The position numbers and the translations under genes were made by a program. Positions 1,653-16,817 of a DNA stretch of 20,000 nt are shown here, piece after piece. The first letter of the stretch is position 1, and each line of letters opens with the position of its first letter. Below the pieces are notes generated by a model. It was not told where the DNA came from. It did no database searches and was given only the letters and a program-made list of their open reading frames with translations. Origin of the DNA: an uncultured virus (IMG/VR IMGVR_UViG_3300024261_001453) (taxonomy: Duplodnaviria; Heunggongvirae; Uroviricota; Caudoviricetes); the IMG/VR virus record IMGVR_UViG_3300024261_001453, one strand, 5' to 3'.

Positions 1653-1670
1653 TTATATATACATTAATTA
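1653..1670 (+). promoter_or_regulatory. Putative late promoter (TWATATATA class) for the major capsid gene
   Basis: ttatatatacattaatta. The identical 18-mer precedes the tmRNA (5820-5837), and the core recurs before other structural-region genes. Confidence 0.65.
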
Positions 1671-1692: not shown

Positions 1693-3423
1693 ATGTCACA
1701 CATTAGAATAGACAAACAAAAAGCTATGAAGAAATGGTCTCCAGTATTAGAGAACATGGGAGTTGCTGGTGAAGATAGATTGGATTGGATGTCAGAATAT
1801 GCTGAATTTCACTCAATCAATGAAAACGCTTACGCAAACGCTTCAAACGTATCGGGTATGGGAGCTGTAGTAGCTGCACAACCTAATTCATTAGCTGGTA
1901 ACACAATTGGCAATTACGCTGACTCAACTGGTTCAGGTGATGTTGGTCAAAACCTTTTACCGGTAGCGATGAAAATAGCAGCTCAAACAATCGGTTTAGA
2001 TTTAGTAGCTGTTAAACCTTCTCCAGGTCCAAAAATTGATTTATTATATATCGACTTTAGATATGATGATGCTCATTTAGGAGATTCAGACGAAAGACCA
2101 CAAGTCTTTAAGATTGCACCAAACGCTACATTTTTAACTACTGGTGCTGGTGGTATGACAGCAGTTATCGCTGGATTAAGAGCTCAATTAGCTACGAATA
2201 CAATCACTGAAACAGTTGGTGGTTTAACTGGTAGAATGTGGAATGATATCACAGATGGTTCAGATGTAGTTGTAGAACCAACACCTTCAAAAGAAGGAAA
2301 AGTTGAATTTTTAGGATTCTCTAGAATTGATGGTTATCCAATGTTCAGAGCTTACAGACAGATGAATACATCTCACACAGATGTTGGTTCAGCTCAAGCA
2401 AACTGGGGATTTGACCCGACTAGAAACACATTTAGTCCTACAATGTCAATGGCTTCTCAAATTACTGATTTAGGAGATGTTACTTTAACTGATGAGCCTA
2501 CTATTGAATTAGTATCAGCTCTTGAAGATCACATTCCTGGTTTCTCTGCAAACTGGATGTCGGATGCTACTGGCCCTGCTGGTAACTATCCAATGGATAG
2601 AGAAATGGACGATAAAAGATACTCTGGTATCATCGGACCAAAAATTAGTTCTAAAACAGTTGCCGTAGGTACTATTGAAGTATCTTCAGCTCTTAGAAGA
2701 ACTGAAATTGAAGATATCAAAGCTAACACTGGTATGGATATCGTTCAAAAAATGGAGTCAATTCTTGTTAATGAATTATCTCAAACAATCTCTAAGCAAA
2801 TTGTTGCTAAGATATTTGAAATGGGTTCACTTAACAGATTATCTGCACCAGCTTATGTTGGAACAGCACCGGCACCATTAGCGGGACAAACAATCTTTGA
2901 CTTAAACACAGCTTATGCAACTGTTGCTGCTGGTAATGGAAACGTTGGTGGTGAAACTACACACGCTGTTCAAAGAAAGCTTGTAACTAAGATAGCTCAC
3001 GCTTCTAACTACATCGCTACAGAGGGACGTGTTGGTCCAGCTCAATACCTTATTACAAATGGGGGATTAGCAGCAGCACTTTCTGATATCTCTGGTTATA
3101 CAATTAACCCAGTGAAATCAAAAATCAATGGTCAAGGTCAATTATACCCAGTAGGTTCAATTGGAGATATTTCAATATATGTTGATCCATATATGAGATA
3201 TAACGACAATAGAATTGCTCTTGGTAGAAAGAACAATCCAGATCAACCAGGTATTATTTTTGTACCTTACTTAATGGCTCAGTCTATATCTGTAATTTCT
3301 GAAGCGACTTTCGCTCCTAGAATGTTACTAAGATCTAGATACGCTGTAACAGAAGTTGGTTGGTTCCCACAAAAACAATTTATGACTATCGAAGTTACAG
3401 ATGTGAATACACTTCTTAACTAA
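1693..3423 (+). CDS. gp23: Major capsid protein, T4 gp23 family
   Basis: gp23-like motifs: KKWSPVLE, LLPVAMKIAAQTIGLDLVAVKP, EDIKANTGMDIVQKMESILVNELSQTISKQI, IYVDPY, GIIFVPY, TFAPRMLLRSRYAV. Highly expressed codon usage; followed by a terminator. Confidence 0.93.
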   Translation: MSHIRIDKQKAMKKWSPVLENMGVAGEDRLDWMSEYAEFHSINENAYANASNVSGMGAVVAAQPNSLAGNTIGNYADSTGSGDVGQNLLPVAMKIAAQTIGLDLVAVKPSPGPKIDLLYIDFRYDDAHLGDSDERPQVFKIAPNATFLTTGAGGMTAVIAGLRAQLATNTITETVGGLTGRMWNDITDGSDVVVEPTPSKEGKVEFLGFSRIDGYPMFRAYRQMNTSHTDVGSAQANWGFDPTRNTFSPTMSMASQITDLGDVTLTDEPTIELVSALEDHIPGFSANWMSDATGPAGNYPMDREMDDKRYSGIIGPKISSKTVAVGTIEVSSALRRTEIEDIKANTGMDIVQKMESILVNELSQTISKQIVAKIFEMGSLNRLSAPAYVGTAPAPLAGQTIFDLNTAYATVAAGNGNVGGETTHAVQRKLVTKIAHASNYIATEGRVGPAQYLITNGGLAAALSDISGYTINPVKSKINGQGQLYPVGSIGDISIYVDPYMRYNDNRIALGRKNNPDQPGIIFVPYLMAQSISVISEATFAPRMLLRSRYAVTEVGWFPQKQFMTIEVTDVNTLLN

Positions 3424-3443
3424 ATAGTTAAATTGAAAATACC

Positions 3444-3472
3444 GAAAAAAGACTCCTTGTGGGTCTTTTTTC
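3444..3472 (+). terminator. Intrinsic terminator after the capsid gene
   Basis: gaaaaaagactc-cttgt-gggtcttttttc hairpin with a T-tract. Confidence 0.8.
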
Positions 3473-3484
3473 TTTTTAAATAAT

Positions 3485-3495
3485 TTATATATACA
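3485..3495 (+). promoter_or_regulatory. Putative late promoter, 4 nt upstream of the ATG
   Basis: ttatatataca; TATATA-cact-ATG(3498). Confidence 0.55.
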
Positions 3496-3497
3496 CT

Positions 3498-3887
3498 ATG
3501 ATTAAAAAGTATAATTATTTCTTTGAGTCTAAGAAGACTAAGTTCCCTAATATTAAGAAAGTTGAAGTAGAAGGATTCTTTATTCATATAGGTAGAGACT
3601 CCAAATCTAACGACCACTTAACATTTAACGTTGCTGATGATAAAGACATCTGGATGCACGCTAAGGGTGTTCCTGGGAGTCATGTTATTATAAGAGTTAG
3701 AGAAAACTTACCAACTCAAGAAATACTAAGATATGTTGCTGAATTAGCTAAAAAGAATAGTAAAGCTAGTAAAGAAGATAATGTAACTGTTGTTTATTGC
3801 CAAAGAAAATTTGTTAAGAAAGAAAGTGGTATGAATGAGGGTCAAGTAAGAGTTGATTATATCAATGCCTACGAAATCGTAGTTTGA
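3498..3887 (+). CDS. Stand-alone NFACT-R (DUF814) RNA-binding domain protein, related to the C-terminal domain of RqcH/FbpA
   Basis: Signature IGRDSKSNDHLT...DIWMHAKGVPGSHVII...AELAKKNSK...VVYCQRKFVKK...GQV. Confidence 0.88.
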   Translation: MIKKYNYFFESKKTKFPNIKKVEVEGFFIHIGRDSKSNDHLTFNVADDKDIWMHAKGVPGSHVIIRVRENLPTQEILRYVAELAKKNSKASKEDNVTVVYCQRKFVKKESGMNEGQVRVDYINAYEIVV

Positions 3888-3890
3888 TAT

Positions 3891-3900
3891 TTAATATATA
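3891..3900 (+). promoter_or_regulatory. Putative late promoter (TWATATATA class)
   Basis: ttaatatata in the intergenic gap before the peptidase gene. Confidence 0.5.
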
Positions 3901-3924
3901 AGATTAATAAAATAAATTTTTATA

Positions 3925-5280
3925 ATGGCAGGAGAAACTAAAAGAGTAAAATTTTCGGATAAATTACTAAAGATACTTAAAAGTATGGAGGATAATAATA
4001 GTTATCTAGCTTTTGAACTTCTTTGGATGAATGATCCAACTGCAAAATATCATAATGGCCTTAATATAACAAATGTTGATTGTGGTACAGATAAATCATC
4101 AGATTTTAATTTCACTGTTGTTATTGGTGGTAAGAAAAATATAATGAAAATTGGTAAATTCATTAGATATTACTTTTCTAATCTATTTAGTAGTGATGAG
4201 ATAACAAAATTTGCTCATGCTTTCAATAGAGTGAAGAATGGTGGTAAGGCTGAACAATCTGGTAAAAAAGTTGAAATACCTGAGTTTAGTTATAATCCAA
4301 AAGACCCTAGGTCTACATTCTTATCACTTGTTACAGAAACATACCCACACCCACATGAGGAGAAAGTTATGAAATACTTACCAAAAGACTTAGATAAAGA
4401 TGAATTTGGTAATTATTATAAAGTGATTCCTGGTGATGATACTACAATGTTTAGTTCTCACCTTGATACGGCTGATAGAAGTCCAGTTCCTACTAACCTA
4501 TTCACTAAAGAGGTAGATGGGGATGAGATAATCTATACTGATGGTAGTACAATATTAGGGGCTGATGATAAGTCTGGAGTTACTGTTATGATGTATATGA
4601 TGGTTCATAATATCCCAGGTATTTATTATTTCTTTATTGGTGAAGAAAGAGGTGGTATTGGTTCTAATCAATTAGCTGATGTTTATGATAAATTTGATTT
4701 CCTAAAAAATGTTAAGAAATGTATTTCTTTTGATAGAAGAAGAACAATTTCTGTTATAACACATCAAATGGGTGGTCGTTGTTGTTCTGATGCTTTTGGT
4801 ACAGGACTTTGTAAAGAGTACAATAAACAAGGACTTAACCTTTCATTGGATAATGGTGGCGTTTATACTGATTCTGCTTCATTTATGGATATTATTCCTG
4901 AGTGTACTAATTTATCTGTTGGTTATTTAAATGAACACACAGGTAGAGAAGAACAAAACATGACATTTTTAATACAGTTGTGTAAAACTTCTATTAATGT
5001 TGATTGGGCTGGATTACCAGTTGCTAGAAAAGTAGGTTTGAACCTTGATTTAGTGCAGAAGCACAAATCTTTAATTGATGTTATAAAAAATGCAGTATTT
5101 GAATTAGAGGTGAAGATGGTTGGGTTTGAGGATAAAATATATATAAGAATAGATTTAGATGATACTAATCTAGTAACTGTTTATGATACTTTGAATATTG
5201 TACAAAACTTACTTGATAAACATAAAGTAGATAGTATGTGTATTTTTACTGAAACATATCTTAAAATAGAATTAACATAA
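3925..5280 (+). CDS. M20/M28-clan zinc metallopeptidase with N- and C-terminal extensions
   Basis: Metal-ligand and catalytic motifs in order: SHLDT, GADDKSG, GEERGGIGS, SFDRR, YTDS, NLSVGYLNEHT. Confidence 0.88.
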   Translation: MAGETKRVKFSDKLLKILKSMEDNNSYLAFELLWMNDPTAKYHNGLNITNVDCGTDKSSDFNFTVVIGGKKNIMKIGKFIRYYFSNLFSSDEITKFAHAFNRVKNGGKAEQSGKKVEIPEFSYNPKDPRSTFLSLVTETYPHPHEEKVMKYLPKDLDKDEFGNYYKVIPGDDTTMFSSHLDTADRSPVPTNLFTKEVDGDEIIYTDGSTILGADDKSGVTVMMYMMVHNIPGIYYFFIGEERGGIGSNQLADVYDKFDFLKNVKKCISFDRRRTISVITHQMGGRCCSDAFGTGLCKEYNKQGLNLSLDNGGVYTDSASFMDIIPECTNLSVGYLNEHTGREEQNMTFLIQLCKTSINVDWAGLPVARKVGLNLDLVQKHKSLIDVIKNAVFELEVKMVGFEDKIYIRIDLDDTNLVTVYDTLNIVQNLLDKHKVDSMCIFTETYLKIELT

Positions 5281-5281
5281 T

Positions 5282-5776
5282 ATGAAGAATATTAAGAATT
5301 ATAAGAAGTTCCTAGAAAAGGAAAATATAAGAGAGGATGAGAACTCATATCTTAATGATGATATTAACGATCCTTGGGGTGATCCAAGTGATAGATGGTC
5401 TGATCGGTCGGATTATGATGATGAGGGTTACCAGTATCTTAATGGTGGTGAGTCTAGATCTAGTGAGGATGATAATGATGATAGAGATGATGTTCAACAT
5501 TTACTTTACTTGTTAAGAACAATGTTTAAGAACAATGGTATTGAGGTTGAAATAGAACATAAGAACTTAGATATTATGATATATTGTGTTATGAATAGAA
5601 AGGAAAGATTAAAAGATGTTATTAATGTTTTAGATGTGGCTAATAAATTGAAGAAGGATGTATTACCACAATATGATTGTGAGTTTGAGATGTGGGAAAC
5701 TAGAAAAGGTAAACCAATGTTAACCTTTAACTTCTTTTATGATGAAGGTTTGAACGATGATCGTGTTCCATTTTAA
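5282..5776 (+). CDS. Hypothetical protein with an acidic N-terminal half and a capsid-targeting-like leader
   Basis: Starts 1 nt after the peptidase stop; begins MKNIKNYKKFLE. Confidence 0.75.
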   Translation: MKNIKNYKKFLEKENIREDENSYLNDDINDPWGDPSDRWSDRSDYDDEGYQYLNGGESRSSEDDNDDRDDVQHLLYLLRTMFKNNGIEVEIEHKNLDIMIYCVMNRKERLKDVINVLDVANKLKKDVLPQYDCEFEMWETRKGKPMLTFNFFYDEGLNDDRVPF

Positions 5777-5819: not shown

Positions 5820-5837
5820 TTATATATACATTAATTA
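5820..5837 (+). promoter_or_regulatory. Putative late promoter for the tmRNA
   Basis: 18/18 identity to the element upstream of the capsid gene; ends 9 nt before the tmRNA 5' G. Confidence 0.65.
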
Positions 5838-5846
5838 CAAACACTT

Positions 5847-6223
5847 GGGGGTGTCATAGAATAGATTCGCAGAGTAAAGGTAGTTATGCAGGTATCGGAT
5901 TGTTAAATACCCGATTAATAAATTAAATAACAAAACAGTAAACGGAAACGTAACAGAAGTAGCAAGCAAAGAAGATTTAGTATTTGCTCTACAAAACAAC
6001 CTACTTAACGTAGGGGAGTTAGTTGAAGCTTAATAGAGGAAACTCTTGAAAATTTAACAACTGATTTACACAGTTAAAAAGGTAAGACCGTTATTTGATA
6101 ATTTTTAGAAGTCTTTTCAAAAAAATTATCTAGTTTGAAAGTTTAGAAAAACTTTCTAAGCCTGTAAATGAATAATTATTGTTAACTGAGGAAGACACGA
6201 TGGGCAGTACATCGTCATCTCCA
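5847..6223 (+). ncRNA. ssrA: tmRNA (one-piece, phage-encoded)
   Basis: Acceptor stem GGGGGTG (5847-5853)/CATCTCC (6216-6222) with the G3-U Ala determinant and discriminator A6223. T-arm ACGATG-GGCAGTA-CATCGT. Pseudoknot 1 ATCGG(5894-98)/CCGAT(5911-15) plus TTGTTA(5900-05)/TAACAA(5928-33). GCAGG/CCTGT helix. Internal tag frame closed by TAA TAG; ~377 nt in an ORF-free gap. Confidence 0.92.
5944..6033 (+). other. tmRNA tag reading frame: GNVTEVASKEDLVFALQNNLLNVGELVEA*
   Basis: Resume context TAAAC|GGA matches the UA-R-N-N|G pattern (E. coli UAGUC|GCA) just after PK1; tandem stops at 6031-6036. The resume codon is inferred. Confidence 0.7.
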
Positions 6224-6229
6224 CAAGAG

Positions 6230-6258
6230 CCGATTGAATACTTTCAATTGGATTTTTT
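6230..6258 (+). terminator. Hairpin/terminator 1 after the tmRNA
   Basis: ccgattgaa-tact-ttcaattgg followed by atttttt. Confidence 0.6.
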
Positions 6259-6291
6259 AACCTCACTTCCTACATGGGAGTGAGGTTTTTT
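6259..6291 (+). terminator. Intrinsic terminator 2 after the tmRNA
   Basis: aacctcacttcc-tacat-gggagtgaggtt followed by a T-tract. Confidence 0.85.
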
Positions 6292-6355: not shown

Positions 6356-6832
6356 ATGATTAATAAATTCGAAGGTCGCTGGAGATTTCTATCAAACTTC
6401 TATCCGTGTGTGGTAGAACACCAAGGTATATCATATCCATCAAATGAACATTATTATGTTGCTATGAAAGTGACGGATGAACAATTTATTAATGGTAGAT
6501 ATTATACCGCTGGTGATTTCAGAGAAATGATAGCGACAATACCAAGTGCTGCTATTGCTAAAAAGTTAGGACAGAAAATAAAGGTTCGTAAAGATTGGGA
6601 AGTTAAGAAGATTGAATTTATGAACTGGGGTGTTAGAGAAAAATTTAATAACAACTCAACTCTTCGAGAATTATTATTATCAACTGGTGACGATGAACTA
6701 ATCGAGGGTAATTTTCATAAAGATACTTTTTGGGGAGTTTGTAATGGAAAGGGTAAAAACCATCTTGGTAAAATTCTTATGGAAGTAAGAAGAGAGTTGA
6801 GAGGTGAGAAGAGAGTTGGTCTGTTTATTTGA
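6356..6832 (+). CDS. NADAR (YbiA-like) family protein
   Basis: FLSNFYP, YPSNEHYYVAMK, AKKLG, REKF, LLSTGDDELIEGN, DTFWG, GKNHLGKILMEVR. Confidence 0.92.
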   Translation: MINKFEGRWRFLSNFYPCVVEHQGISYPSNEHYYVAMKVTDEQFINGRYYTAGDFREMIATIPSAAIAKKLGQKIKVRKDWEVKKIEFMNWGVREKFNNNSTLRELLLSTGDDELIEGNFHKDTFWGVCNGKGKNHLGKILMEVRRELRGEKRVGLFI

Positions 6833-6926: not shown

Positions 6927-7898
6927 ATGTCTGTTATTAGCTATTTTGGTGGCAAGTCCTCAAAGGTCTTCCATCAGTTCATCAACACAAGAATACCAAA
7001 AGATGGTATCAAAACTTATGTAGAACCATTCTCAGGTGCAATGGGAACGTATATGGATGACCCAAATCTTAAATTCGATACAGTTGTTTATAATGATAAG
7101 AACCGCCACCAGGTGAACTTATATAAGTGTTGTCAAAATCCAACAGAAATGTTGATACATATAGATAATCTAAAGAGTGGTTTATTACACACAACAGAAA
7201 CGGATCCAATAAAAAATTGGGATTTTTATAAAGCTATTTATAAGACATTTCAAAAGAATGATTTCTTAGATGATATGGATTTTGAGATTGGGGATTATGA
7301 AAAAGCTGCTATGTATGCTTTCTTAATTACATCAGCTCATAATTCAGTTTATCCAAGAGGAGCAGGGTTTAATGGTTATAAGAAGAATAATGGCAAACTT
7401 AAAATAGAAGCACTTGTTAATAAACTAAAGAAGGGTAAGTACACAGAGAAATTGGAATCAATTACTGAGTTCTATAATATTGATTTTGAGGAATTGATAA
7501 ACAAATATGATTCAGTAGATACATTTCTTTACTTAGACCCACCTTACGCTAGATTTGACGAGGCTAAAGGAATGGATGATGCTAGGAGACTATTCTGGTA
7601 TGGATGTGATGATGAAGGTGTCTTTGGACCCGAATCACATAGAAGGTTATTAGAAATGCTTAAAAAGACTGATTGTAGATGGTCATTATCTTATTATTAC
7701 TTTCCTTTATTAGAAGAATTATTACCAAGAGACCAATATAACTGGGTTGAGAAAGAAGTATTTAGAAGTTCTGCTCATGGTGGTAACAATTCGGATAATA
7801 AAAAGGTACAAGCTAAAGGTGTTGAGATGCTTATTATGAATTATAATCCAGAAACGGGAGAAAAAATCACTAATAAGGATGTCGAATGTGAACTTTAA
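6927..7898 (+). CDS. DNA N6-adenine methyltransferase, Dam/D12 class (target site not determinable)
   Basis: YFGGKS, YVEPFSGAMG (SAM-binding motif), YNDKN, FLYLDPPY (catalytic motif), terminal EMLIMNY. Confidence 0.92.
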   Translation: MSVISYFGGKSSKVFHQFINTRIPKDGIKTYVEPFSGAMGTYMDDPNLKFDTVVYNDKNRHQVNLYKCCQNPTEMLIHIDNLKSGLLHTTETDPIKNWDFYKAIYKTFQKNDFLDDMDFEIGDYEKAAMYAFLITSAHNSVYPRGAGFNGYKKNNGKLKIEALVNKLKKGKYTEKLESITEFYNIDFEELINKYDSVDTFLYLDPPYARFDEAKGMDDARRLFWYGCDDEGVFGPESHRRLLEMLKKTDCRWSLSYYYFPLLEELLPRDQYNWVEKEVFRSSAHGGNNSDNKKVQAKGVEMLIMNYNPETGEKITNKDVECEL

Positions 7899-8631
7899 GA
7901 TTGTTGATATTTTCGAGAGTGTTAAGGATGATATTTTTTCAATTCAACCATATTTATCTATTAATAATAATCTAAAAAATTTCACTACTAATACATTTAG
8001 TTTATCAATTCCGATGGAATTGGATGGGTTTGGTGTTGATACTGATGCTGAGATGATAAGTCTTATTAGGATTGAGATGAATCAAAGTATTTATAAAACA
8101 ATTTTGAAAGAATTATTCAATACTTCAAAATTTGATTATATAGATATTTCTAAAACTGTTAATACTCACCAATCTGTTAATGATATTATTGATTTTTTAT
8201 CTATTGATTGTATAGATAAAAAATATAAGTATTTAGTTACGAATACTTCTATGGCTAATTCAATAGGTGATAGTTCATTATTTAACTTTAAACCAAGTGC
8301 ATCGGTTGTAGAATCTCAAGGTTTACCATATTTATTTGGGTCTTTGATTAAATATGATGTTTATATAGATCCTTTTATGAAATTTGATGATAATAGAATT
8401 TGCTTATTTGATTCTTGTGAGATTAATATAGAGAATATAAATCAAACTGTTACATCAGCGGCCACATTTGCACCTAAGATGATGATAAGTTATGATGTGG
8501 CTTTTAAAATAGCAGACTCTAAGGTTATATTTGTTTTAGATGGTAATGAATCAAGTAGTTCTTATAAGCAATATAAACAATTACAGCGTGATATAAAAAT
8601 AAATTCTTTATTAGATGGCTCAACAGATTAA
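7879..8631 (+). CDS. Truncated, diverged paralog of the major capsid protein (C-terminal half of gp23)
   Basis: Collinear similarity to the MCP in this window: SLIRIEMNQSIYKTILKELF vs SILVNELSQTISKQIVAKIF; YLVTN vs YLITN; VYIDPFMKFDDNRICL vs IYVDPYMRYNDNRIAL; SAATFAPKMM vs SEATFAPRML. Confidence 0.85.
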   Translation: MSNVNFKIVDIFESVKDDIFSIQPYLSINNNLKNFTTNTFSLSIPMELDGFGVDTDAEMISLIRIEMNQSIYKTILKELFNTSKFDYIDISKTVNTHQSVNDIIDFLSIDCIDKKYKYLVTNTSMANSIGDSSLFNFKPSASVVESQGLPYLFGSLIKYDVYIDPFMKFDDNRICLFDSCEINIENINQTVTSAATFAPKMMISYDVAFKIADSKVIFVLDGNESSSSYKQYKQLQRDIKINSLLDGSTD

Positions 8632-8836
8632 TAATACATTCCAGGTGAATTCGGCTTCTAATAAAAATGCTATTGTGGTTGATCCAGATGGATACACAAC
8701 TATTGATAAATTAATACTTGTTGATCAAAAAGATGGAACTAAGTGGGATTTTTCAATTTATGATGGTGAGGTATTAGTTGAGCCACATGGTAAATCAGAA
8801 AAAAGAGAATATAGAATCAATAAGGTTATTTCTTAA
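8615..8836 (+). CDS. Small hypothetical protein (73 aa)
   Basis: Overlaps the upstream stop region; plausible composition; ends REYRINKVIS. Confidence 0.65.
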   Translation: MAQQINNTFQVNSASNKNAIVVDPDGYTTIDKLILVDQKDGTKWDFSIYDGEVLVEPHGKSEKREYRINKVIS

Positions 8837-10949: not shown

Positions 10950-13900
10950 ATGTCAAATCATAAGAATCTTGTATTTTTCAATAAAGAAGGAGACTACTTA
11001 AACTTTAATTATAGTGAATCTAATGATAGATTCGAAGGAGATATGCTCTTTCACGAAAATTCAACAGATACGTTTAAGACTTATGGTCTTTATACTATGG
11101 AAAATATACCATCTTTTGAGTTTGAATTACCTGGTGAATTAACAACTAAAAAGTTTCAATTATTTAATGAATATGGTTTAAACCTATATGGTGCTAAGTA
11201 TGATGACCAAGATATAATAAATATCGAACCGGTTAATAACGATCCCTCTTTCTACTCTAAATGGATATATGGTATTGACTTTGAATCAAAATTCCCAACA
11301 GGAACACTTATCAAGTTTAATAGTCCTTTATTTGAGTTTAATAATATTAACCAAACATATGCTGTTGTTAGTAGTAAGAAAAATGCTATTATGATTATTG
11401 GGCAGATGGATAATGCTACATTTGAAAGTACTTACTATTCATCATATATTGATGTGAATAGTTATGATAATAAAACGATAACGGGAATTAATGCTGTTGG
11501 TGTTTATAATTATATAGATTCTTCTTATGATAATAATTTATCTGATTGGTCAGAGCCGGATTTTTATGATGAATATTATGTTGGTAAGAAATTAAATTTA
11601 GTTAATACTGAATTTAATGATTCGGTAGTCTCTGTTGAGAATATAGATGTTACAGATCAAGTTCATTTTGAATTCTCAACAAACAATTCTAATTTACCCG
11701 ATGATTCAAATTTTATAATAGAAGTTATAACAAAAACTGATATACCTAAGGTGTATGAAGGAGGGTTAAGTATAACTACTGATAGTAGAATCTATATAAA
11801 TAACGTTTTTAATTACCCACATATACTAAAATCTGGTACGGAATTCAAAATTATAGGATCTGTTGATAATCAAAATTTTTTAAGAGTTTCTAATATACCA
11901 ACATTTGCTGGTAACACACAATTAACATATTATGCTACACAGTCTCAAGTTTTATTCAATAATAGAATATATGAATGTGTAAAAGGTTATACACAAAGCT
12001 TTGCATCACAAACAACATCCTTTGTAACACCTTTAAATACTAATTATTGGTCTAACCCAACTTATGTTAAAGTTGAACAGTCCACGGTTGCAGAATCTTT
12101 ATTATCTGCTCAGATATATTTAACAACAGATAGATATTATTTTTATACTGGTTGGACTAGTTCAGCTGCTGTTACATTAGCGTCTGCTGCTGATAAATAT
12201 AAAGAAGATCTTAAAATATTTAATATTGATTTATTTTATAAAAATAATACATTAAAATCTGATTTAATTTATCCTAGTGATTATGCTAAAGTTAACTTTT
12301 ATCATAGTGAAATAGGTGCTACCTATTCCATCGGCTCTGAATTAAAAACTTCTGAGAGATTGGTTGAGGTTGAAGAAGAATTAAATTATGAATTAAATTA
12401 TGATATATCTGAGAATTTCAAATATAATATTGTTTTTACTGATATTGATGAATTTGGTATACTGGTCGAGGTCAATAAAATGATATATGATGAAGAAGTT
12501 GCCTTTATTTATACCGGATCAATCATTGATATGGAAAGAACAATAGATAGAACTTTAAGATCTTGGTTATCACGGTGGTATTTAAGATTATTATCATTAG
12601 GTATAATAGCTGAATTAAAATATGTAGGTAATTATACTTCTGTATTTTATAATTCAATTGTTTTGAGAACAGAATATCCTAATGTTCCACTTGATATAAA
12701 TAATGTTGAGGTTGGTATAACAGCAAATTATCATATAGAACACTCTAGAGTTTTGTTCGATGACATGGGACCATTTTTAAATATCATAATAAATGATGAA
12801 TCATATTCACAACAAACAATTTATAGTGGATTACTTCCGGATATCCCATCTACTTTATCAGCTTGGATGGAAAAACATTCTGAGATATTAGTCAGCTTCG
12901 AGATTTTCGTAACAAATATTAATAATTTATTGAAATTTGATATTAAGCATTTGGGTAGAAGACTAGATTATACAATAACTACTGGTAAATTAAATATACC
13001 GGGTTTACAAGATTATATAATAACAGAAAAGATATTAGGTAATCATGGTATGTTAATAGCTTCTAATGAGGTTTTACTACCTGATACATCATTAACATCA
13101 TTTGAGGATTCTGGGTTCGCTACGGGTATGGTATTTGCTATAAACAATACATACCATCCATATGTTAATCAAGATTTTAATATACAATTTTTAGACCCAC
13201 AGGTGCTGAATTTGAGTTATCAAGGACCTTTTTGGGGATTAACCGATAGTATTTGTAATTCATCAGCTTTTGTTACATTAGCATTTGATTATGGTTTTGG
13301 CCAAACTGGTTGCCAGCCAATAATTGTACCAACTCAATCTGAGGGTGGTGCGTTTGGCGGAGGTGATGATGGTGCTTCTCCAGGATTACCAATGAGCTCC
13401 TTCGATTTGAATATGTTCTCTTTATCATATAATCTGAATGAATATGTGGTTAATGAATATGATTTAAATTCTTTCTCTGGGACTACCGGATTAGTTGATA
13501 TTAAATATGTTCAGTTATCTAATTCTATGTATGCTTATGGAGATGAATTAGTTGTTATAGATGCTTATATAGGACAATATATAACAACAGTTGCTTTACC
13601 AGGTAATACACAAAGTATAGAGGTTGAATTTAACCCTATAAATAATTATCTTTACTGTTTATCTAAAAACAGTATTTATGTTGTTGATCCTCTTATTAAT
13701 ACCTTGATTAACACAATTTCTTTATCTAATGACGCTTTTGATATCGGGATGAATCCAATAAATGGTGATGTTTATGTTACATATGATAATATACCATATA
13801 TTGATATTTGGGAATATAATAATTTAACTAATATACCAAATCATAATCTGACAACACCATCACCATTAGATACTAAGACGGGAAAAATGGTATTTAATGA

Positions 13901-16817
13901 TTTTGAAGGTGATATGTATATTACAACTAATGCTGATTTGGTAGTTAGAATAGATGGTTTAACAAGAACATTTCAGACGAGTTATGGTGTTACTGGATTA
14001 ACACATTCGATTTTTTATGAACCGGTTAATGAGGGTATATATGTTTATGGATCTGCTAGTTTATGGAAAATAGATAATGGCGCTACACAATCGATTGCTT
14101 TACCATCACAAGCATTCAATGATGTTATATTTAATAATATAACTGGTGAGATGAACGTATCCGATTCATCTACAAATTTTACTAGAATGAATTTAGATAC
14201 TGATTTTTATTTACAAACCGGTGTTTCTAATTATGGGTATTTAATGATAAATCAATTTGATGGTGATGTTTATTTATCATCACAAACATATGATAATATA
14301 CTGGTTTTGGATGGTGTTGATGGTACTGTTAAATATACCGCTCCTGTGAGCGCACAGACGACAAAATTAGTTTATAATCCTGAAAGAAAATCTATATGGG
14401 CAATACAGCCATCTATAAACTCAGTCGTTGAGCTTGATGTTGAGCTTGGTGGTGTTATAAATTTATTACCACCAACATATGATACAATTGAGGATAATCA
14501 ATACGGTACTTTGGATCCAGATTATGAACAAAGAGAAAGTATTTGGTTAAAAACCAGAGATTATATGAGAAGACCGAGAGAAAATTTTGAGGGTGATGTC
14601 TCTGTTAAGTATTATTGGAGGTGGCTTTCTGATAATGTTCCTCAATTCTTCTTATATGATTTTAGTGGTATTCAATTAGATAGAACCACAACTGGATCAT
14701 ATTCTTATATTGGTGAAAGACCTTTAACAGAAGTAGTTCTTAATAAATATCCAAATAGTGATATTAGTAAGGTATCTTTGTCACAATACCAACAAACTAT
14801 ATTCGATAAGGTCGAACAAACATTAAGTTATGTTGATGATGAGGATGATATTTCAACTGATGTAGAACCTTTGCAATTATTTTTGGGATTCAAATCTGAA
14901 AATCCAGGTGCTTTAAGATCTGTATTGCAATTGTATAAGAAAGAAGAAATTTATTTCGATATTATATCGGATACTGTGAATAGTATTACACTTGAAACTT
15001 TGGATATTAATAATGAGAATAAAAGAGGTCAATTAACAATATTAGAATCATCAATTGAAACATTTACTAAAAAGGGATTAAAACCTGGTCAACATATTGT
15101 TGTTTATTTAAAGGATACTATGAATGATGAAAATCAGTATATATCTGGTAATAATGGTATTCTTTTGAAGGTTAGGGAGGTTTATACCAAGACGTTAGTT
15201 GTGGATTTCTTTAATCTATCTTATGACTTCATAGAGTATGAAAATACTGTTATATCGGATTATCCATTTGTCGGTACTAATACTTATTTAGATTTAAGTA
15301 TAAAGGTTGTTGATAGAGAAATAGGTAGGTTCACAACCTATGCTGAGACAGAGGAGGAAGATATTCGATTTAAAGTAGAATTGGGTAATGTTGGTAAATT
15401 AATTGGTCCAAATGAAGTTTTTATATTCAAGGAGTATGATATATTAGAGGGTGGTATAGACTGGCCTTATCTCAATAAGAAGAGAAAGGAGATGTTGATG
15501 ATGAAACATTTGATATATCCTTATATCGGAGCTTATAAGTCTATTATAAATGCGATTAATTACTTTGGTTATAATGATTTACAATTGAATGAATATTATA
15601 AAAATGTTGATCCAGCTTCCGAGAATTTCTCTAAGTTGTTTAAGGTTGAAATACCTGATATATTTGATAATAGTGTTGATGGTTGGGAAGAAAATGACTT
15701 CATAAAACACACAATGCCGAATAATAAATTTGATGGTACAAATTTATTTAATTTAACATATTTTATAACAGATAAAGAGGGTAATAATGTACTCAGTTAT
15801 AGTATTGATGAAATTATTATAAAATTACAAGGATTGAAATTTTGGCTTAAGAATAATATTATCCCATTGACACATAAGATAATGGATATAACAGGTAAAT
15901 CTTATATAAATAATGGTACTTATATAGTACACAAGGTACATGATGTTAGAATATTTAATATAAATCAAGAAATGACACCGATAACATTTAAATTAAATGA
16001 GTCTTATTTATCTCCTGTTAATAGTGGATCTACTGTTTATGATTGTGTTCTTGATTTTTATTCAATAATACCTGGAGTTGGTGCTGAGATTACACCATCG
16101 GAGACATTATTAGAAAAGCCTAAAACTTTTAATGGTTCTAATTTGGTTCTTCCTGATTATTTTAATATTAAAATAAGAACTTATAAAACTTATAAAGAAT
16201 GGGCTCCTTTTAAAACTTATATTACCGGTGATAAGGTTACTTATTATGATAAATTATATGAGTCTGTTATTGATAACAATAAGGTTAAAAATCCTAGAAA
16301 ATATGAAAATGCTACTGAGTGGAATGCTACTGATGGTTACCAATTAACTAATATAGTTCAATATAGAAGAGATTTTTATGTTTATAGTGGTTTAGGTAAT
16401 ACACAATCAATCATCAGTCCTAATTTAGATCCAGGAAATTGGTTAGATGTTACTGAGTGGAGGCAACTTGATTATGATCCTGTACAGACTATAAATGAAT
16501 TTAGATCTGGTGATGATTTGTTACCATTTAATTTCATTATTGATTCAAATATTGACCCGTTTATAGTCATTGAAGTTACATCAGATAATGGATATGGTAG
16601 TGTTTATAGTGATAAAAAAAATTATGAAATTAGAGGATTGAAAGATTTAACAGAACCATATAATCCTATTGATCCAATTGGTCCTTTTGAGCCAATACCA
16701 CCAGTTTATGGAGAACAACCAGCAATTCCTTTCCATGGTGGGCATGGAAACCCACATGGTGAGCCACCAGTACTACCACCACCCGGCCGTGGAGGAATTC
16801 CAAATATTTCGCCGTAG
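10950..16817 (+). CDS. Very large virion structural protein, probably a baseplate wedge/tail component with a beta-propeller and CBM5/12-like motifs
   Basis: 1955 aa, behind a late-type motif. YVTN/YncE-like blades (FNPINNYLY, MNPINGDVYV, FNDFEGDMYI, YNPERKSIW; ~13490-14440). IGAYKSIINAINYFGY resembles the baseplate-wedge GT/S helix motif. W..(K/G)TY..GDKVTY-type motifs near 16200-16440. Confidence 0.6.
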   Translation: MSNHKNLVFFNKEGDYLNFNYSESNDRFEGDMLFHENSTDTFKTYGLYTMENIPSFEFELPGELTTKKFQLFNEYGLNLYGAKYDDQDIINIEPVNNDPSFYSKWIYGIDFESKFPTGTLIKFNSPLFEFNNINQTYAVVSSKKNAIMIIGQMDNATFESTYYSSYIDVNSYDNKTITGINAVGVYNYIDSSYDNNLSDWSEPDFYDEYYVGKKLNLVNTEFNDSVVSVENIDVTDQVHFEFSTNNSNLPDDSNFIIEVITKTDIPKVYEGGLSITTDSRIYINNVFNYPHILKSGTEFKIIGSVDNQNFLRVSNIPTFAGNTQLTYYATQSQVLFNNRIYECVKGYTQSFASQTTSFVTPLNTNYWSNPTYVKVEQSTVAESLLSAQIYLTTDRYYFYTGWTSSAAVTLASAADKYKEDLKIFNIDLFYKNNTLKSDLIYPSDYAKVNFYHSEIGATYSIGSELKTSERLVEVEEELNYELNYDISENFKYNIVFTDIDEFGILVEVNKMIYDEEVAFIYTGSIIDMERTIDRTLRSWLSRWYLRLLSLGIIAELKYVGNYTSVFYNSIVLRTEYPNVPLDINNVEVGITANYHIEHSRVLFDDMGPFLNIIINDESYSQQTIYSGLLPDIPSTLSAWMEKHSEILVSFEIFVTNINNLLKFDIKHLGRRLDYTITTGKLNIPGLQDYIITEKILGNHGMLIASNEVLLPDTSLTSFEDSGFATGMVFAINNTYHPYVNQDFNIQFLDPQVLNLSYQGPFWGLTDSICNSSAFVTLAFDYGFGQTGCQPIIVPTQSEGGAFGGGDDGASPGLPMSSFDLNMFSLSYNLNEYVVNEYDLNSFSGTTGLVDIKYVQLSNSMYAYGDELVVIDAYIGQYITTVALPGNTQSIEVEFNPINNYLYCLSKNSIYVVDPLINTLINTISLSNDAFDIGMNPINGDVYVTYDNIPYIDIWEYNNLTNIPNHNLTTPSPLDTKTGKMVFNDFEGDMYITTNADLVVRIDGLTRTFQTSYGVTGLTHSIFYEPVNEGIYVYGSASLWKIDNGATQSIALPSQAFNDVIFNNITGEMNVSDSSTNFTRMNLDTDFYLQTGVSNYGYLMINQFDGDVYLSSQTYDNILVLDGVDGTVKYTAPVSAQTTKLVYNPERKSIWAIQPSINSVVELDVELGGVINLLPPTYDTIEDNQYGTLDPDYEQRESIWLKTRDYMRRPRENFEGDVSVKYYWRWLSDNVPQFFLYDFSGIQLDRTTTGSYSYIGERPLTEVVLNKYPNSDISKVSLSQYQQTIFDKVEQTLSYVDDEDDISTDVEPLQLFLGFKSENPGALRSVLQLYKKEEIYFDIISDTVNSITLETLDINNENKRGQLTILESSIETFTKKGLKPGQHIVVYLKDTMNDENQYISGNNGILLKVREVYTKTLVVDFFNLSYDFIEYENTVISDYPFVGTNTYLDLSIKVVDREIGRFTTYAETEEEDIRFKVELGNVGKLIGPNEVFIFKEYDILEGGIDWPYLNKKRKEMLMMKHLIYPYIGAYKSIINAINYFGYNDLQLNEYYKNVDPASENFSKLFKVEIPDIFDNSVDGWEENDFIKHTMPNNKFDGTNLFNLTYFITDKEGNNVLSYSIDEIIIKLQGLKFWLKNNIIPLTHKIMDITGKSYINNGTYIVHKVHDVRIFNINQEMTPITFKLNESYLSPVNSGSTVYDCVLDFYSIIPGVGAEITPSETLLEKPKTFNGSNLVLPDYFNIKIRTYKTYKEWAPFKTYITGDKVTYYDKLYESVIDNNKVKNPRKYENATEWNATDGYQLTNIVQYRRDFYVYSGLGNTQSIISPNLDPGNWLDVTEWRQLDYDPVQTINEFRSGDDLLPFNFIIDSNIDPFIVIEVTSDNGYGSVYSDKKNYEIRGLKDLTEPYNPIDPIGPFEPIPPVYGEQPAIPFHGGHGNPHGEPPVLPPPGRGGIPNISP

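Follow-up and report, generated by a model that had tools for sequence, protein, structure and literature searches.

What can be the role of a 250-amino-acid (aa) protein that matches part of a major capsid protein (MCP) and is encoded outside the head genes of a huge marine tailed phage? The question is raised by a short gene in a 20,000-nucleotide (nt) window of DNA (the whole stretch that was analysed) from an uncultured virus of the Caudoviricetes, IMG/VR record IMGVR_UViG_3300024261_001453. The window corresponds to bases 24047-44046 of the 76.9-kb viral record (~30 % G+C, estimated completeness 19 %), and DNA identical to the short gene was also present on a 483-kb contig that is 98 % complete. 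The two genes compared throughout this work are the following:

1693..3423, + strand: parent paralog, the gp23-type MCP, 576 aa; Pfam PF07068 Gp23 (2.7e-26), phrog_138 and phrog_28442
7879..8631, + strand: short MCP paralog (P0001), 250 aa, predicted minimal HK97-fold protein; identified by MCP homology, an AlphaFold2 (AF2) model, HK97-fold matches and 346 cluster representatives

The short gene proved to be a paralog of the MCP gene, under purifying selection and conserved in position, repeatedly lost in related phages and separated from the head genes by its transcription signals; its product was predicted to retain the complete capsid fold. Among the roles weighed below, that of a dispensable, low-copy protein of the capsid lattice, which would be a pared-down functional counterpart of T4 gp24, the vertex protein, is the one put forward here, tentatively and at somewhat less than an even chance.

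Descent from the capsid protein and predicted fold

The protein encoded by the short gene descends from the gp23-type capsid protein of the same phage and is specific to its lineage. The 250-aa open reading frame (ORF) at 7879-8631 (+) was confirmed, and all the strings compared in an earlier, sequence-only reading of this locus were recovered, both in the short ORF (GVDTDAEMISLIRIEMNQSI, YLVTN, QGLPYLFGS, YIDPFMKFDDNRI and ATFAP) and in the MCP (QGQLYPVGS, YVDPYMRYNDNRI and ATFAP). BLASTP aligned the two proteins with 30 % identity over 108 aa (E 3e-15), the profile of the short family matched the single MCP with a probability of 99.2 % (hhalign, E 2e-19), and the comparison of a 140-member family profile with a profile of 68 MCPs paired residues 29-221 with MCP residues 320-570 (hhalign, 99.7 %, E 3e-25, 189 columns), so that the collinearity with MCP residues ~320-570 proposed earlier holds at a level far above chance. 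By these BLASTP and hhalign values (99.2-99.7 % for the latter) the short protein belongs, through the window MCP, to the Gp23/gp24 superfamily. Direct searches with P0001 gave no match in Pfam at E<=0.01, PF07068 included, and none in PHROG; Pfam Gp23 was reached weakly by 10 of the 140 family members at E<=0.01 (best 4e-5), and the only capsid match of the family profile among PDB sequences was T4 gp24 (residues 161-286 with profile positions 31-138, E 0.012). Identity to the phage's own MCP was 27-38 %, compared with 14-16 % to T4 gp24. In the 77-kb record, in the 98 %-complete 483-kb genome and in two genomes of 634-642 kb, the short gene was the only A-domain gene found besides the MCP. 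The nearest relatives of the MCP itself formed three groups: uncultured huge phages of 630-735 kb; Prevotella Lak phages; and jumbo phages of Tenacibaculum, Sphingomonas, Flavobacterium and Chryseobacterium.

Three segments can be distinguished in the short protein:

7879..7962, + strand: residues 1-28, N-terminal helix (model helix 7-18) and short strand; no counterpart in the MCP sequence, strongly conserved in close relatives
7963..8541, + strand: residues 29-221, region homologous to MCP 320-570; pre-spine strand, spine helix 55-80, A domain, G..DP[YF]M..D.RI motif and long P-domain strands
8542..8628, + strand: residues 222-250, added C-terminal amphipathic helix (model helix 227-246) with the motif Y..YK...RDxKI[DN]x[IL]L; no MCP counterpart, pLDDT (predicted local distance difference test) falling from 91 to 76

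The AF2 model calculated with 140 sequences had a pLDDT of 89.1 and a predicted template modelling score (pTM) of 0.85 (a model with 10 sequences was poor, pLDDT 62.8). From the N- to the C-terminus it contains helix 7-18, strands 26-28 and 36-43, the spine helix 55-80, the helices and strands of the A domain, P-domain strands 180-192 and 200-211, strand 214-220 and the extra helix 227-246. The spine helix, A domain and P domain of the HK97 fold are all present in the model; before the spine helix there are only helix 7-18 and the two short strands, the N-arm, the long E-loop and the E-loop insertion domain being absent. The structural comparison with gp23 and gp24 suggested by the sequence-only reading gave matches: in Foldseek searches, T4 gp23/gp24 and encapsulins were the top matches in the PDB, and T4-like MCPs those in BFVD, together with proteins annotated as T4-type vertex proteins (297 and 317 aa). 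VIA-align gave the following values:

T4 gp23, 13.0: model 23-222 with chain 109-521; 196 residues aligned, root-mean-square deviation 3.1
T4 gp24, 12.1-12.2: model 6-222 with chain 2-421 (1YUE)
Encapsulins, about 11: model 1-217 with chain 7-272; chains start matching at model residue 1-3

Whole HK97-fold shell proteins match the model from a start at residue 1-22 to an end at 217-225. The model thus points to a complete, minimal HK97 fold in which a stub would replace the E-loop. The term half-length, used in the sequence-only reading, holds only in relation to an MCP whose N-terminal region is long and which also has an insertion domain, because the model aligns with whole HK97-fold proteins: the N-terminal half is missing from the sequence, but not from the fold, which is predicted to be complete and compact. 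The nearest clusters in the ESM Atlas were short "Gp23 domain" proteins, some of them probably amplicon fragments, and were uninformative.

Family, selection and genomic position

The short gene belongs to a real, large family, widespread and so far unnamed. An exhaustive HMMER search retrieved 346 cluster representatives (clusters at 50 % identity) at E<=1e-3 and 145 at E<=1e-10; nearly all of the 346 were 215-280 aa long and matched end to end. A word-indexed search gave 9 homologs of 207-256 aa with 58-94 % identity, and the phage collection searched yielded no cultured phage with a short gene of full length, its only matches at >=80 % coverage being two uncultured records. R237, located in the added C-terminal helix, was the only invariant residue in 140 sequences; next in conservation were I241, in the same helix, and then G154 and D164, nearly invariant and located in the G..DP[YF]M motif that the MCP also has; this motif accordingly holds two of the family's four most conserved positions.

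The family is under purifying selection. The reading frame was intact in all 22 unique DNA copies, and the Nei-Gojobori ratio of non-synonymous to synonymous substitutions (dN/dS) was 0.16-0.29 in the 8 closest pairs, the MCPs from the loci concerned giving 0.22-0.44 (only pairs at dS 0.3-1.5 were usable, and copies of the window type were identical in DNA). The possibility of a DNA mimic was considered and dropped, since the median isoelectric point of the family (5.1, net charge -6) is near the median of the record's proteins (5.4) and its charge is therefore not unusual.

Related loci were located with the sub-alignments A3, A5 and A4, the full 140-sequence alignment having no sufficiently conserved stretch. 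In 19 of 20 unique loci with both genes, the distance from the MCP to the short gene, downstream on the same strand, is 5-8.7 kb, and the short gene follows the genes for the protease/scaffold, the MCP and the peptidase. The order of the array is protease/scaffold (phrog_207), MCP, NFACT-R, peptidase, small peptidase paralog, NADAR, methylase, short gene and a gene of 73-92 aa, and it is kept across loci whose short proteins share only 25-35 % identity. The other members in the window are:

3498-3887, + strand: NFACT-R protein gene (PF05670, 8.2e-16)
3925-5280: peptidase gene, 451 aa (phrog_4191, 7.6e-63)
5282-5776: small peptidase paralog, 164 aa; clusters with the 451-aa peptidase by BLAST
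6356..6832, + strand: NADAR-domain gene, first in its unit (PF08719, 5.1e-28); position conserved
6927..7898, + strand: D12-class N6-adenine DNA methyltransferase (Dam-type methylase) gene (PF02086, 3.4e-16; phrog_56); 3' end overlaps the short gene
8615..8836, + strand: 73-aa gene (p73; cluster c6); overlaps the 3' end of the short gene by 17 nt, no family match

The overlap with the methyltransferase gene had been noticed before, and amounts to 20 nt.

Four deeper relatives were truncated: a 313-aa ORF of LR756500 between DNA polymerase B and RecA-like plus DnaB genes (E 4.5e-29), a 188-aa ORF of LR756501 adjoining thymidylate synthase (E 9.5e-15), ORF-116 of Tenacibaculum phage PTm1 (BBI90508.1), between a MazG-like gene and a helicase (E 1.3e-7), and gene 215 of Chryseobacterium phage MA9V-2 (MA9V2_215, WNN12464.1), 3.3 kb downstream of its own MCP (E 1.0e-7). 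E-values are per genome, with the short-family profile; hhalign on pieces of this kind gave 99.1 % and 89.9 %. These paralogs, annotated as "hypothetical" or not at all, match the short-family profile over the spine-helix/A-domain/DPYM part, but they stop soon after the DPYM motif and have neither the long P-domain strands nor the C-terminal RDxKI helix; lacking the P-domain strands, they cannot form a full HK97 fold. The same profile detected only the MCP in Lak-B1, LR756504, PAU, pT24 and MaF61.

Possible roles of the short protein

In the role proposed here, a capsid protein would have been pared to a minimal HK97 fold (N-terminal helix and hairpin, spine helix, A domain and P-domain strands) and would have gained a C-terminal helix. 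The short protein would act through the capsid-type contact surfaces that it retains, above all the A domain and the motif G..DP[YF]M..D.RI, and would join the MCP lattice, most likely as a subunit of the special capsomers at the fivefold vertices. The gp24-like role would have arisen by independent duplication, and the MCP would fill the position where the short gene has been lost. We infer, on this account, that the short protein binds the MCP, is present in the virion and is located at its vertices. In favour of such a role stand the retention of the entire shell-building fold under selection, the conservation of the contact-rich A domain and of the motif common to both proteins, the location of the short gene beside the head module, and its standing as the sole second A-domain gene in complete genomes.

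The closest known system is T4 gp24 (PDB 1YUE, 5VF3), likewise a second capsid paralog beside a gp23-type MCP. It is 427 aa long vs. 250 aa for the short protein, which differs in having no insertion domain, N-arm or long E-loop and in carrying an extra C-terminal helix; the short gene also differs in its location, in a NADAR/methylase unit without the head-gene motif, and in its derivation from the MCP of its own lineage, and a vertex location is here only presumed. A section of PMC3012670 describes gp24 as an MCP paralog that is easily bypassed, and repeated loss of the short gene is what would be expected of an easily bypassed gp24-like protein. Some phages of the T4 superfamily are without gp24, according to a section of PMC4621102, and these fit the patchy loss of the short gene. 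The argument of the sequence-only reading that the protein is too truncated for a vertex protein was weaker than claimed, given this bypass precedent, the alignment of whole HK97-fold shell proteins with the model and the small vertex proteins in BFVD (297 and 317 aa).

Several observations weigh against a place in the capsid. Nothing in the short protein corresponds to MCP residues 1-319 (N-arm, most of the E-loop and insertion domain) in the profile-profile alignment, and in T4-type capsids the N-arm, the first E-loop strand and the insertion domain, all missing here, make peripheral contacts (as stated in part of PMC12810830). In most solved jumbo-phage capsids, for example that of Goslar, the penton is formed by the MCP itself, according to an excerpt of bioRxiv 10.64898/2026.04.21.720040. 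At larger distances, where dS is saturated, the amino-acid divergence of the short protein was 2-3 times faster than that of the MCP. Three of the four truncated relatives are located among replication/nucleotide-metabolism genes and not beside the MCP. In the gene order, the tightest link of the short gene is to the methylase and not to the MCP: it is the last but one gene of a unit formed by NADAR, the Dam-type methylase, the short gene and p73, and a methylase was found no more than about 1.7 kb upstream in all 21 unique loci that could be assessed (directly adjacent in 15, with 1-2 small ORFs between in 5, split in two in 1). The methylase and short genes overlap or are <=6 nt apart in most loci, and they stay joined through two inversions relative to the head block (loci L034/L142 and L175).

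The short gene is dispensable, and the pattern of its loss belongs to the same side of the balance. It was cleanly absent from 13 loci that retain the rest of the array: six of them showed the methylase followed by p73 after a gap of 168 nt with no remnant, and the other seven showed nothing like the short gene within 2-3 kb past the methylase; tblastn found no remnant in gene-lacking loci at better than E 0.1. Ten whole records with the same MCP family showed the MCP only, two of them large and fairly complete (249 kb at 90 % and 177 kb at 74 %) and the other eight of little weight for absence (12-50 % complete). Presence of the short gene was scattered on the MCP tree, with at least 13 changes (FastTree; the count is approximate, many forks being open). 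The candidate p73 was rejected as an obligate partner of the short protein, p73 being retained where the short gene is gone.

The transcription signals also set the short gene apart from the MCP, from which its unit is separated by two strong terminator-like hairpins:

1654..1670, + strand: promoter-like motif upstream of the MCP, TATATATACATTAATTA; an identical copy lies at 5821-5837, and the NADAR unit has none before it
3444..3472, + strand: terminator-like hairpin directly after the MCP gene, 12 pairs and a T run; MCP RNA contigs end at 3375-3407
6259..6287, + strand: terminator-like hairpin directly upstream of the NADAR unit, 12 pairs and a T run; RNA contigs end at 6217-6232

The motif is of an ATATATA type, lies about 25-35 nt upstream of the start codon, and was counted within 80 nt upstream in the related loci:

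Protease/scaffold: 49 of 54 loci
MCP: 55 of 68 loci
Peptidase: 41 of 60 loci
NFACT-R: 24 of 49 loci
NADAR: 4 of 39 loci
Methylase: 0 of 34 loci
Short gene: 0 of 18 loci
p73: 0 of 15 loci
Background windows: 149 of 4080

The absence of a late-type motif reported in the sequence-only reading was thus reproduced across loci. Because the motif counts differ and the hairpins intervene, the short gene is in another signal class than the head genes. In the 77-kb record the motif preceded 41 of 93 ORFs, including all 5 recognisable virion/packaging genes (terminase, baseplate wedge, head closure, protease and MCP) and also the ribonucleotide reductase, helicase and kinase genes; it may define a promoter class specific to the phage. 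The 77-kb record (G000) also encodes a gp55-like late sigma factor (phrog_234), at 13909-14274. RNA contigs from four marine metatranscriptomes covered the MCP and positions 5855-6232 at >=99 % and stopped near both hairpins; there were none over 7879-8631, and the methylase was represented only at 7354-7572, in one run, though contigs cannot show absence of expression.

The main rival reading, possible if on balance rather unlikely, is that the short protein is instead a soluble MCP mimic that never enters the virion, is made together with enzymes of a counter-defence type, and either occupies host proteins that recognise capsids or caps the A-domain interfaces of the MCP and so controls its polymerisation. 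Its operon partners, NADAR and the Dam methylase, are DNA-modification/repair enzymes of an anti-immunity kind (phage NADAR-type orphan antitoxins neutralise DarTG1, as reported in part of PMC11825919), and its transcription signals are unlike those of the head genes. The patchy distribution with clean losses is typical of accessory genes, evolution is faster than that of the MCP, relatives with only the spine helix and A domain, and so without a full HK97 fold, sit among genes of early/middle type, and a partner outside the capsid lattice is suggested by the new invariant motif at the C-terminus. Against this, no MCP-derived decoy was found in searches of open-access literature, and a capsid sensor should be switched on, rather than blunted, by a look-alike of its trigger. 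Furthermore, the entire fold is under purifying selection over 346 clusters, which is beyond the needs of an epitope decoy, and the place beside the head module is fixed, unlike that of shuffling anti-defence islands. The premises of the sequence-only reading (truncation, placement and signals) held up better than expected, but its conclusion, that the protein diverts capsid sensors or disturbs competing phages, found no direct support.

The close link to the methylase could also be explained, improbably in our judgement, by an HK97-fold adaptor that holds this Dam-type enzyme, possibly together with NADAR, inside the capsid, so that the enzymes would be packaged or would act on DNA during its packaging. 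The spacing of the two genes (overlapping or <=6 nt apart in most loci, adjacent in 15 and within ~1.7 kb in 21 of 21) and their movement as a unit in the two inversions would suit such a pair, and the logic is comparable to that of the capsid-anchored Dar proteins of P1: at penton-hexon junctions of this phage, the anti-restriction proteins DarA and Hdf are fixed to the inner capsid (described in a section of PMC12810830). However, at least 13 loci that lack the short gene keep an intact methylase, the enzyme's C-terminal tail was alike in loci of both kinds, locus L025 has an intact short gene and a methylase in two pieces, and the truncated relatives elsewhere have no methylase neighbour. 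Even less probable is an encapsulin-like shell, in which the compact protein would self-assemble into a small compartment in the infected cell. The encapsulins (M. xanthus EncA, T. maritima encapsulin and the P. furiosus virus-like particle 2E0Z) share its compact HK97 fold and align end to end, but the short protein is phage-encoded and derived from a gp23-type MCP, identity to the encapsulins is only 6-10 %, the closest sequence relative is its own MCP, the short gene is dispensable, and no cargo signal was found on the neighbouring methylase, no cargo-type tail of it tracking the presence of the short gene. A cargo peptide on the methylase was rejected as an idea on the same grounds, the tails being alike in both kinds of loci and the methylase persisting without the short gene. 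A decaying, functionless partial duplicate of the MCP would account for a protein shorter than the MCP and missing in many relatives, but the frame intact in 22 of 22 copies, the 346 representatives of the same length, the dN/dS of 0.16-0.29, the confident fold and the conserved added termini refute this reading, which is left with a negligible probability. The rest of the probability belongs to explanations that were not considered here.

To our knowledge, the HK97 fold is known only as a builder of shells (capsids and encapsulins), and among tailed phages T4 gp24 is the one second capsid paralog that has been studied well. No description of the short-protein family was found in the open-access literature searched. 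With 346 clusters at 50 % identity the family is a large one; it is assigned to no Pfam or PHROG family, and its fold is stripped to a 250-residue core linked to DNA-modifying enzymes and not to head genes. As a vertex subunit, the short protein would reveal the minimum of the fold that is required for a penton, and natural sister lineages with and without the gene would be available for studying vertex closure in very large capsids. If it works outside the virion, a new viral use of the capsid fold, possibly in immune evasion, would be at hand. The more specific possibility that a widespread minimal HK97-fold family split from the capsid gene of Bacteroidota-type huge phages and was re-used outside the capsid as a soluble mimic, blinding immunity or gating MCP polymerisation, is doubtful but worth stating; if true, it would be the first non-shell job of this fold in a virus.

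Neighbouring RNA and other genes of the region

The 580-bp gap between the 164-aa gene and NADAR gave rise to a separate RNA contig of ~310-378 nt (5855-6232, + strand) in all four metatranscriptomes, at a contig depth equal to or above that of the MCP. This RNA starts ~20 nt past the motif copy at 5821-5837 and ends at the hairpins 6230-6251 and 6259-6287. ARAGORN and Rfam (gathering threshold) gave no match on it; at a loose threshold the transfer-messenger RNA (tmRNA) model aligned end to end (model 1-374, window 5847-6226), with only 8.8 bits and E 0.28. It may be a very divergent tmRNA-like RNA or a new non-coding RNA. The NFACT-R protein, with an RNA-binding domain of the ribosome-quality-control type, is encoded near the tmRNA-like RNA; in almost every related locus its gene separates the MCP from the peptidase.

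Further ATATATA-type motif sites are present in the window at 3486-3494 and at about 10880. The latter region is followed by an ORF of 1955 aa (10950-16817, + strand; 1910 aa in LR745206) with an ATATATA-type motif upstream and no Pfam or PHROG match. The peptidase has a further paralog of 360 aa at G000 53746-54828, and the array of some relatives contains a second copy of ~430 aa. In locus L025 (9005-9946), the two pieces of the methylase upstream of the intact short gene are of 171 and 74 aa.

In L008/L030, a 154-kb IMG/VR contig, the MCP frame (locus positions 2815-4545) is in two pieces of 314 and 229 aa with ~33 residues uncovered between them; the contig is otherwise identical, and an assembly error, a frameshift or an insertion is possible. 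Four further small ORFs of the 483-kb genome G001 (163, 178, 88 and 74 aa) resemble MCP residues 7-50, 23-85, 34-88 and 511-558, the matching pieces being located at 234152-234280, 436603-436812, 41161-41307 and 198805-198951, and all have counterparts in LR745206 and LR756502. The N-terminal region of the MCP seems to be common to several small proteins, and may be a prohead-targeting or propeptide segment.

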